Origin: Escherichia coli
GTDB lineage: Bacteria; Pseudomonadota; Gammaproteobacteria; Enterobacterales; Enterobacteriaceae
DNA: 64,000 bases
Direction: 5' to 3' (one strand)
Assembly: GCF_041248615.1 (NCBI RefSeq)
Contig: NZ_CP158426.1
Part shown: one piece after another, positions 23,639 through 24,079 of the stretch
How positions within the stretch are numbered: the stretch's first letter is position 1
How the letters are laid out: every line of letters begins with the position of its first letter
Made by a program: the position numbers and the translations under genes
The notes under the pieces: model-generated
Seen by the model: only the letters and a program-made list of their open reading frames with translations
Databases searched by the model: none
What the model was told of the DNA's origin: nothing

Positions 23639-24079
23639 ACGTAAACTTTTTCCGGTTGTTGTCGATATCTCCATATCCCTCAACCGGAAAATAATAATAC
23701 AAAAATGCTTAGCCCAACTAATAATCACCTAATCCAAACGCCTCATTCATGTTCTGGTACAGTCGCTCAAATGTACTCCGGATACGCGGTTCGCTGATTT
23801 CCAGGACATTGTCGTCATTCAGCGACCTGTCCCGAGTATCACGGGCCTGCGAATTCATCAAGGAATGCATTGCAGAGTGAAGTATCGAGTCACGCCATAT
23901 TTCGCTATCAGGATTCTGTATGATGGTTACATCGCCCAGCCCAGGGCTGTTTAGTCATCAGCGCTTTCTGACAGTGCTGAGATTTCAACCTGTTGCAGTA
24001 AAAATGAGTAGATATAGGGCAAGTGTGCTGCCAAACCCATCTTTTACGGGGTGAAGGTAGATTTGGTTTGAAGGGTATC

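Follow-up and report, generated by a model that had tools for sequence, protein, structure and literature searches.

Background

The chromosomal region between argW and dsdCXA is a well-known variable hotspot of Escherichia coli, in which csc stands in place of dsdC and dsdX (PMC3032704, PMC11251922, citing Jahreis 2002 and Moritz & Welch 2006), and the same site is a known integration target of phages and islands (PMC3032704, PMC11251922). The gene order described for the argW-dsdCXA/csc locus, i.e. dsdA, dsdX remnant, cscR, cscA, cscK, cscB and argW, is also that of the window, the stretch of 64,000 nucleotides of E. coli contig NZ_CP158426.1 analysed here. Neither a DUF4942 fragment nor an island scar between cscB and argW is mentioned in this literature on the hotspot (PMC3032704, PMC11251922). 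Mention of csc is furthermore made for four coliphage genomes (PMC11251922). In many Stx2a phage records the argW end is given as duplicated where the phage is integrated.

The csc-negative strain K-12 displays the order argW, prophage CPS-53, the 15-nt pawZ, 95 bp and dsdC. PawZ is a pseudo-argW copy at the far end of CPS-53 and resembles the feature described below in being a small scar of site-specific integration at argW, with the core TGGTGTCCCCTGCAG present in both. In contrast, pawZ bounds a resident prophage as an attachment-site duplicate, whereas the window has no duplicate core and its presumed scar consists of a gene fragment plus 50 arm-like base pairs.

Layout of the cscB-argW spacer

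The spacer (23639-24079, 441 bp) connects cscB with the 3' end of argW. Its left neighbour is cscB (22391..23638, + strand, 415-aa ORF), which encodes the sucrose permease; the identical sequence is annotated as MFS transporter/cscB in NZ_OW967178.1. On the other side ARAGORN places argW, tRNA-Arg(CCT), at 24080-24154 on the - strand (Rfam tRNA, 63.4 bits), so that its 3' end faces the spacer. The positions of both neighbours agree with the earlier note, and so does the lack of any ORF of at least 60 aa inside the spacer, the longest one from a start codon comprising 50 aa. The attachment core of argW (24080-24102, - strand) corresponds to the tRNA 3' end and is reused by phages and islands. 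Beyond argW the next gene is yfdC (24230-25162).

The opposite border of the csc-specific DNA is the 18511/18512 junction next to the dsdX 3' remnant (18293..18511, - strand); csc-specific DNA thus spans 18512-24079, the relic included. E. coli isolate 362 (NZ_OW967178.1) has the identical sequence (100%) over this region of the window and is annotated in the order emrY, dsdA, dsdX 3' remnant, cscR, cscA, cscK, cscB, a 50-aa "DUF4942 domain-containing protein", tRNA-Arg, yfdC and mlaA. The left border region between the dsdX remnant and the start of cscR (18512-18753) is 242 bp long with a G+C content of 45.5%, and is found in 2657 genomes.

Identity of the DUF4942 fragment

A stop-free run is present on the - strand of the spacer and contains, in one frame, the peptide ...NDDNVLEISEPRIRSTFERLYQNMNEAFGLGDY that had been quoted earlier; it comprises 78 codons (23718-23951) rather than the 60 stated at that time. 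By chance alone an open stretch of 78 codons is unremarkable, and it is the Pfam match that marks it, on sequence grounds, as a real coding remnant. The 78-residue translation matches Pfam DUF4942 (PF13708) with 38.3 bits (cut-off 25, E=1.5e-9), covering only profile positions 5-62 of 190. The earlier remark that no family could be named for the stretch is therefore superseded, and many genomes in RefSeq already carry the label. The 50-codon ATG ORF within the relic (23718..23870, - strand) is RefSeq WP_001316510.1, a "DUF4942 domain-containing protein", and its product just passes the same cut-off with 26.1 bits; the naming of this ORF as DUF4942 is as such already known.

The pseudogene fragment as delimited by Pfam, tblastn, blastn and phmmer occupies 23721..24029 (- strand) and corresponds to approximately residues 33-151 of an intact 281-aa paralogue of E. 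coli, whose DUF4942 domain covers residues 87-275 (profile positions 1-189). Both ends are missing, i.e. the first ~32 and the last ~130 codons, and an internal gap of 41-48 nt with a frameshift is located near 23930-23937. A tblastn comparison with the intact paralogue gives 50% identity over residues 76-151, and a second frame covers residues 38-70; this upstream piece holds two in-frame stops. At the nucleotide level, 23735-23936 (203 nt) is 75% and 23930-24029 (100 nt) 73% identical to the intact paralogue gene. Recognisable similarity to intact DUF4942 genes stops at about 23727, and a match in the plasmid collection reaches about 24013. A complete DUF4942 domain in an intact frame is absent, which makes the fragment a pseudogene derived from the family and not a working member of it.

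The reconstructed fragment aligns in HMMER/phmmer to residues 40-151 of P0029, a 261-residue protein whose 1.7-kb contig offers no informative neighbourhood, with 50% identity. No closer intact relative was found in the HMMER scan of 1.84 billion cluster representatives (best ~50% identity), and the close matches of a word-indexed protein search were copies of the same short E. coli relic only. Close matches to the spacer among plasmids are confined to records of 0.37-4.9 Mb filed as plasmids, two of them chromosome-sized; the others are paralogues of 72-75% identity. NCBIfam models gave no match to the intact DUF4942 protein. An integrase remnant was considered and rejected: the sole family match in the spacer is DUF4942, an internal gene piece. 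Of the suggestions made in the earlier note, a decayed gene fragment of mobile-island origin is supported; the remnant is not that of an integrase but an internal piece of a DUF4942 gene.

Sequence decay

An alignment was made of five lineages, i.e. the window, O157:H7 SS52, AR_0014, DS566-1 and EC190486, whose divergence reaches about 10%. Within the 78-codon frame, codon positions 1, 2 and 3 hold 10, 14 and 11 variable sites. Premature stops interrupt the frame at different places, a TGA in AR_0014 and a TAG in EC190486. Annotation of the ORF by PGAP varies: some genomes have it, many do not. Promoter-like sites were not found in 23400-24300. The fragment decays neutrally and is nonfunctional.

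Distribution among E. coli genomes

In a survey set of 5426 complete E. coli genomes the spacer is present in 2644, the cscB 3' end in 2645, the cscB-relic junction (probe covered by at least 80%) in 2622, and the junction of dsdX remnant and cscR in 2657; csc-negative genomes match the dsdX part of the last probe alone. With a more sensitive search 1802 further genomes were recovered, which possess only paralogues of 60-80% identity elsewhere. The 95-bp flank of K-12 and the remaining argW region of this strain bear no resemblance to the spacer. The segment is consequently strictly linked to csc and, contrary to what would be expected of plain intergenic DNA, not conserved in csc-negative strains; the comparison with other csc-positive genomes, which had been recommended, returned the cscB-relic junction intact in 2622. 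No csc-positive genome with a different left border was detected in a spread of 40 of the 5376 matching records. An exact 20-mer from the hairpin/cscB 3' flank yielded just two chance matches, in unrelated MAGs, among species-representative genomes.

Four E. coli phage records (ON470608.1, ON470622.1, ON470589.1 and ON470594.1) contain the cscB 3' end and the relic at 97.5-99.4% identity, two of them argW in addition. This suggests that host flank was included within the prophage boundaries, or that the csc end was moved by specialised transduction.

The arm-like bases beside argW and later insertions

The 50 bp abutting argW (24030..24079) are not recognisably DUF4942 and resemble the integrase-side (attL) arm of the argW island of EC190486. 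Anchored at the core, 24 of the last 45 bp are identical to this arm (p=0.0004 by shuffling; one independent comparison), and a TTTTAYGGG...GGTAGATTT block lies at equal distance from the core in both. The same 45 bp share 14/45 positions with the CPS-53 arm and 11/45 with the chromosomal flank of K-12, neither of which is significant. The similarity suggests that the argW-side bases may be the arm of an old island related to the present-day argW island. The earlier proposal of an original island border is plausible, with only the 45-50 bp beside argW similar to an integrase-side arm. A second copy of the argW core (23 nt, up to 3 mismatches) is absent from the 64-kb window, hence no far-end attachment site is left to prove the island boundary.

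In O157 SS52, EC190486 and O26:H11 the full spacer is still joined to cscB. Beyond its argW-side end come, in this order, an incomplete duplicate of the argW 3' end (22-23 nt long in O157 SS52 and in EC190486, some 20 nt in O26:H11), a newer prophage or island and argW itself, which in O26:H11 is presumed. Since the partial copy lies between relic and newer element, the relic is outside those elements and older than they are. The argW core beside the relic is a still active attachment site.

O26:H11 FWSEC0001 (L013/L014) exhibits tandem accretion, with cscB, relic, core copy, a CP4-type island with an integrase pseudogene, a lambdoid prophage starting with torI and, presumably, argW. In ETEC L7_E1373 (L005, 8078-10284) the spacer is replaced past its first 77 bp by ISEc46 (TnpB and TnpA) and an N-terminal remnant of an IntS-type integrase. 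The argW-side arm of this strain is a few substitutions apart from the CPS-53 arm of K-12, a match that indicates an IS-associated deletion of a CPS-53-like prophage along with the relic.

Islands with intact DUF4942 genes

In strain 20 (NZ_CP064847.1) an intact DUF4942 gene (WP_001280435.1) is the last gene of an island that reads, on one strand, Ag43, DUF932, antirestriction, JAB/RadC, DUF987, hypothetical, YeeU antitoxin, CbtA toxin, DUF5983, DUF957 and DUF4942, a gene set of the CP4-44/CP4-57-type module. Only 99 bp separate the 3' end of this DUF4942 gene from that of a tRNA-Ile gene (L007, 5426-6445), i.e. the distal end of the island, not the integrase, abuts the tRNA, opposite to the usual layout.

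EC190486 possesses a 42-kb argW island with a tyrosine integrase beside argW, fec genes, a GTPase, Ag43 and then a frameshifted YeeU gene. A related argW island in O26:H11 has been moved off argW by the lambdoid prophage. About 276 genomes carry the integrase-side arm of the EC190486-type island with at least 95% identity. In both islands (EC190486, L009 2014-2362; O26:H11, L014 15796-16203) the last gene encodes an antitoxin of the YeeU family and lies some 100-130 bp away from the attachment-site copy; CbtA, DUF5983, DUF957 and DUF4942 do not follow, which leaves an orphan antitoxin at the end. In the two intact island ends examined, DUF4942 or its neighbouring module is at the far end from the integrase.

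The relic belongs to the same Pfam family as the intact DUF4942 genes of CP4-44/CP4-57-type islands, and what is left of it is 72-75% identical to them in nucleotides and about 50% in protein. It also has their orientation relative to the island axis: it reads away from argW, as expected for the last gene of an island. Companions of the intact genes (Ag43, DUF932, antirestriction, RadC/JAB, DUF987, YeeU) are found in argW islands as well. Unlike the intact genes, the relic retains only residues ~33-151 of 281, carries a frameshift and stops, has no surrounding island and is without a close intact relative. A tyrosine integrase at the tRNA 3' end is missing from the window (no spacer ORF over 50 aa, no integrase match); one is present at the corresponding position in EC190486, O26:H11 and ETEC L7. 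The distal island module is represented in the window by at most one gene fragment, in the right orientation, and the 45-bp arm similarity is suggestive.

Origin of the spacer

The most probable reading, to which we assign a probability of about 0.65, is that the spacer is the non-functional scar of an old island that collapsed in situ beside argW by two deletions. We infer the following order of events. An island of the CP4-57/CP4-44 type (the kind with Ag43, toxin-antitoxin and P4-like integrase) would have occupied the argW site, its genes pointing away from the tRNA. A first deletion would have extended from just past the integrase-side arm, of which about 50 bp were kept, to codon ~33 of the last gene. 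In a second event, the replacement of dsdC and most of dsdX by csc, the gene may have been cut after codon ~151 and joined to the cscB 3' flank with its hairpin. Afterwards the fragment has drifted neutrally, and newer elements insert between argW and relic, duplicating 15-23 nt of the tRNA end. Both junctions are identical in every lineage examined, which implies that the events happened once. Against the collapse in situ stands that neither a longer form of the gene nor a parent island still attached to it was found in any genome, and that the arm similarity comprises 45 bp in one independent comparison.

If the segment were plain backbone DNA conserved in the intergenic region downstream of argW, or what is left of an integrase gene, this would agree with its position outside the attachment-site copies of later insertions, to which it is like a chromosomal flank, and with the fact that the usual neighbour of a tRNA 3' end is an integrase. 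The segment is missing, however, from csc-negative genomes, with 1802 genomes offering nothing but paralogues of 60-80% identity, and the flank in K-12 is a different 95 bp; conserved backbone DNA is ruled out by these absences. As to an integrase, the only family match is DUF4942, and the integrase remnant of ETEC L7 is a different sequence that stands in place of the relic, so that we regard this pair of explanations as hardly credible. Nearly as improbable, though a shade less so, is that the 50-60-codon ORF encodes a functional small protein from a domesticated piece of DUF4942. RefSeq calls a CDS there in many genomes and the score of the 50-aa product lies just over the Pfam cut-off (26.1 versus 25), but less than a third of the DUF4942 domain is covered, third codon positions show no excess of variation (10/14/11), AR_0014 and EC190486 have acquired separate stops, and PGAP leaves the ORF unannotated in many genomes. 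Moreover, there is no promoter-like site nearby and no AGGAG-like ribosome-binding site ahead of the ATG.

A more serious competitor is that the fragment arrived together with csc, either because csc was distal cargo of a CP4-type island integrating at argW or because the donor flank of cscB already held a broken DUF4942 gene, the scar being the remains of the delivery vehicle. Perfect linkage to csc fits such an import equally well. The near-perfect co-occurrence and the identical breakpoints in every lineage examined, one of them about 10% diverged, speak for it, as does the protein identity of ~50% to other DUF4942 genes of E. coli, which suggests a foreign lineage. Yet the island-cargo version needs three deletions versus two, the left border lies inside dsdX and has no attachment-site copy, and the exact 20-mer of the cscB 3' flank met only chance matches in species-representative genomes, so no donor context emerges. 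We hold arrival with csc to be possible, at odds of one in a few. In its cargo form the csc regulon might, tentatively, have entered E. coli as cargo of a CP4-type argW island or have recombined into the far end of one, the ~390-bp scar (arm plus DUF4942 fragment) being the last trace; if true, this would explain one junction pair common to about half of E. coli.

Whichever history applies, the feature is a commonplace pseudogene relic, and its family and its hotspot are both known. The short RefSeq "DUF4942 domain-containing protein" CDS between cscB and argW should be treated as a pseudogene fragment, and the csc-specific DNA, from inside dsdX to the argW core, should be taken to include the probable island scar. 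The locus illustrates clearly how older elements at a tRNA hotspot are worn down to a few hundred base pairs, with the tRNA core still capturing phages and islands. For the acquisition of csc the scar is a modest clue; it opens no new question and matters little beyond annotation.

Hairpin downstream of cscB and further features

The long-loop hairpin announced just after cscB is real by both sequence reading and RNA folding. It starts 9 nt past the cscB stop (23647..23691) and consists of the arms TTTTTCCGGTTG (23647-23658) and CAACCGGAAAA (23681-23691), which form a perfect 11-bp stem, and of a 22-nt loop with a small inner stem. The RNA fold reaches -18.4 kcal/mol (z = -3.66), a value that no sequence among 200 shuffles equalled. 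In the five lineages 4 of 45 columns are variable in the hairpin, 35 of 234 in the relic and 14 of 57 in the 57 bp beside argW, numbers that are small. ETEC L7 retains the hairpin; the remainder of its spacer is replaced. With a Rho-independent terminator it shares a stable G+C-containing stem-loop directly past a stop codon, and it differs in the 22-nt loop and in the U-tract, which is absent after the stem on either strand. The terminator scan did not call it terminator-like, and a canonical intrinsic terminator was rejected, since the stem is present but the loop is 22 nt, there is no T-run and no scan call. The hairpin would most likely form a structure at the 3' end of the cscKB transcript. 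Between it and the 3' breakpoint of the pseudogene lies an AT-rich linker (23692..23720), most of which belongs to the hairpin part of the spacer (23639-23717), with a G+C content of 37% for this part.

Rfam covariance models found no match in the spacer; the sole match is argW itself. A sub-threshold hit to "Plastid-ycf2 5UTR" at 24082-24154 (+ strand; 24.8 bits versus a gathering score of 65.7) is antisense to argW and an artefact of the tRNA-like structure. In the interval between mlaA and fadL, a 436-codon ORF (26390-27700, - strand) is present without matches in Pfam and NCBIfam; the corresponding gene is named "hypothetical protein" in RefSeq, and K-12 has yfdF at this place.
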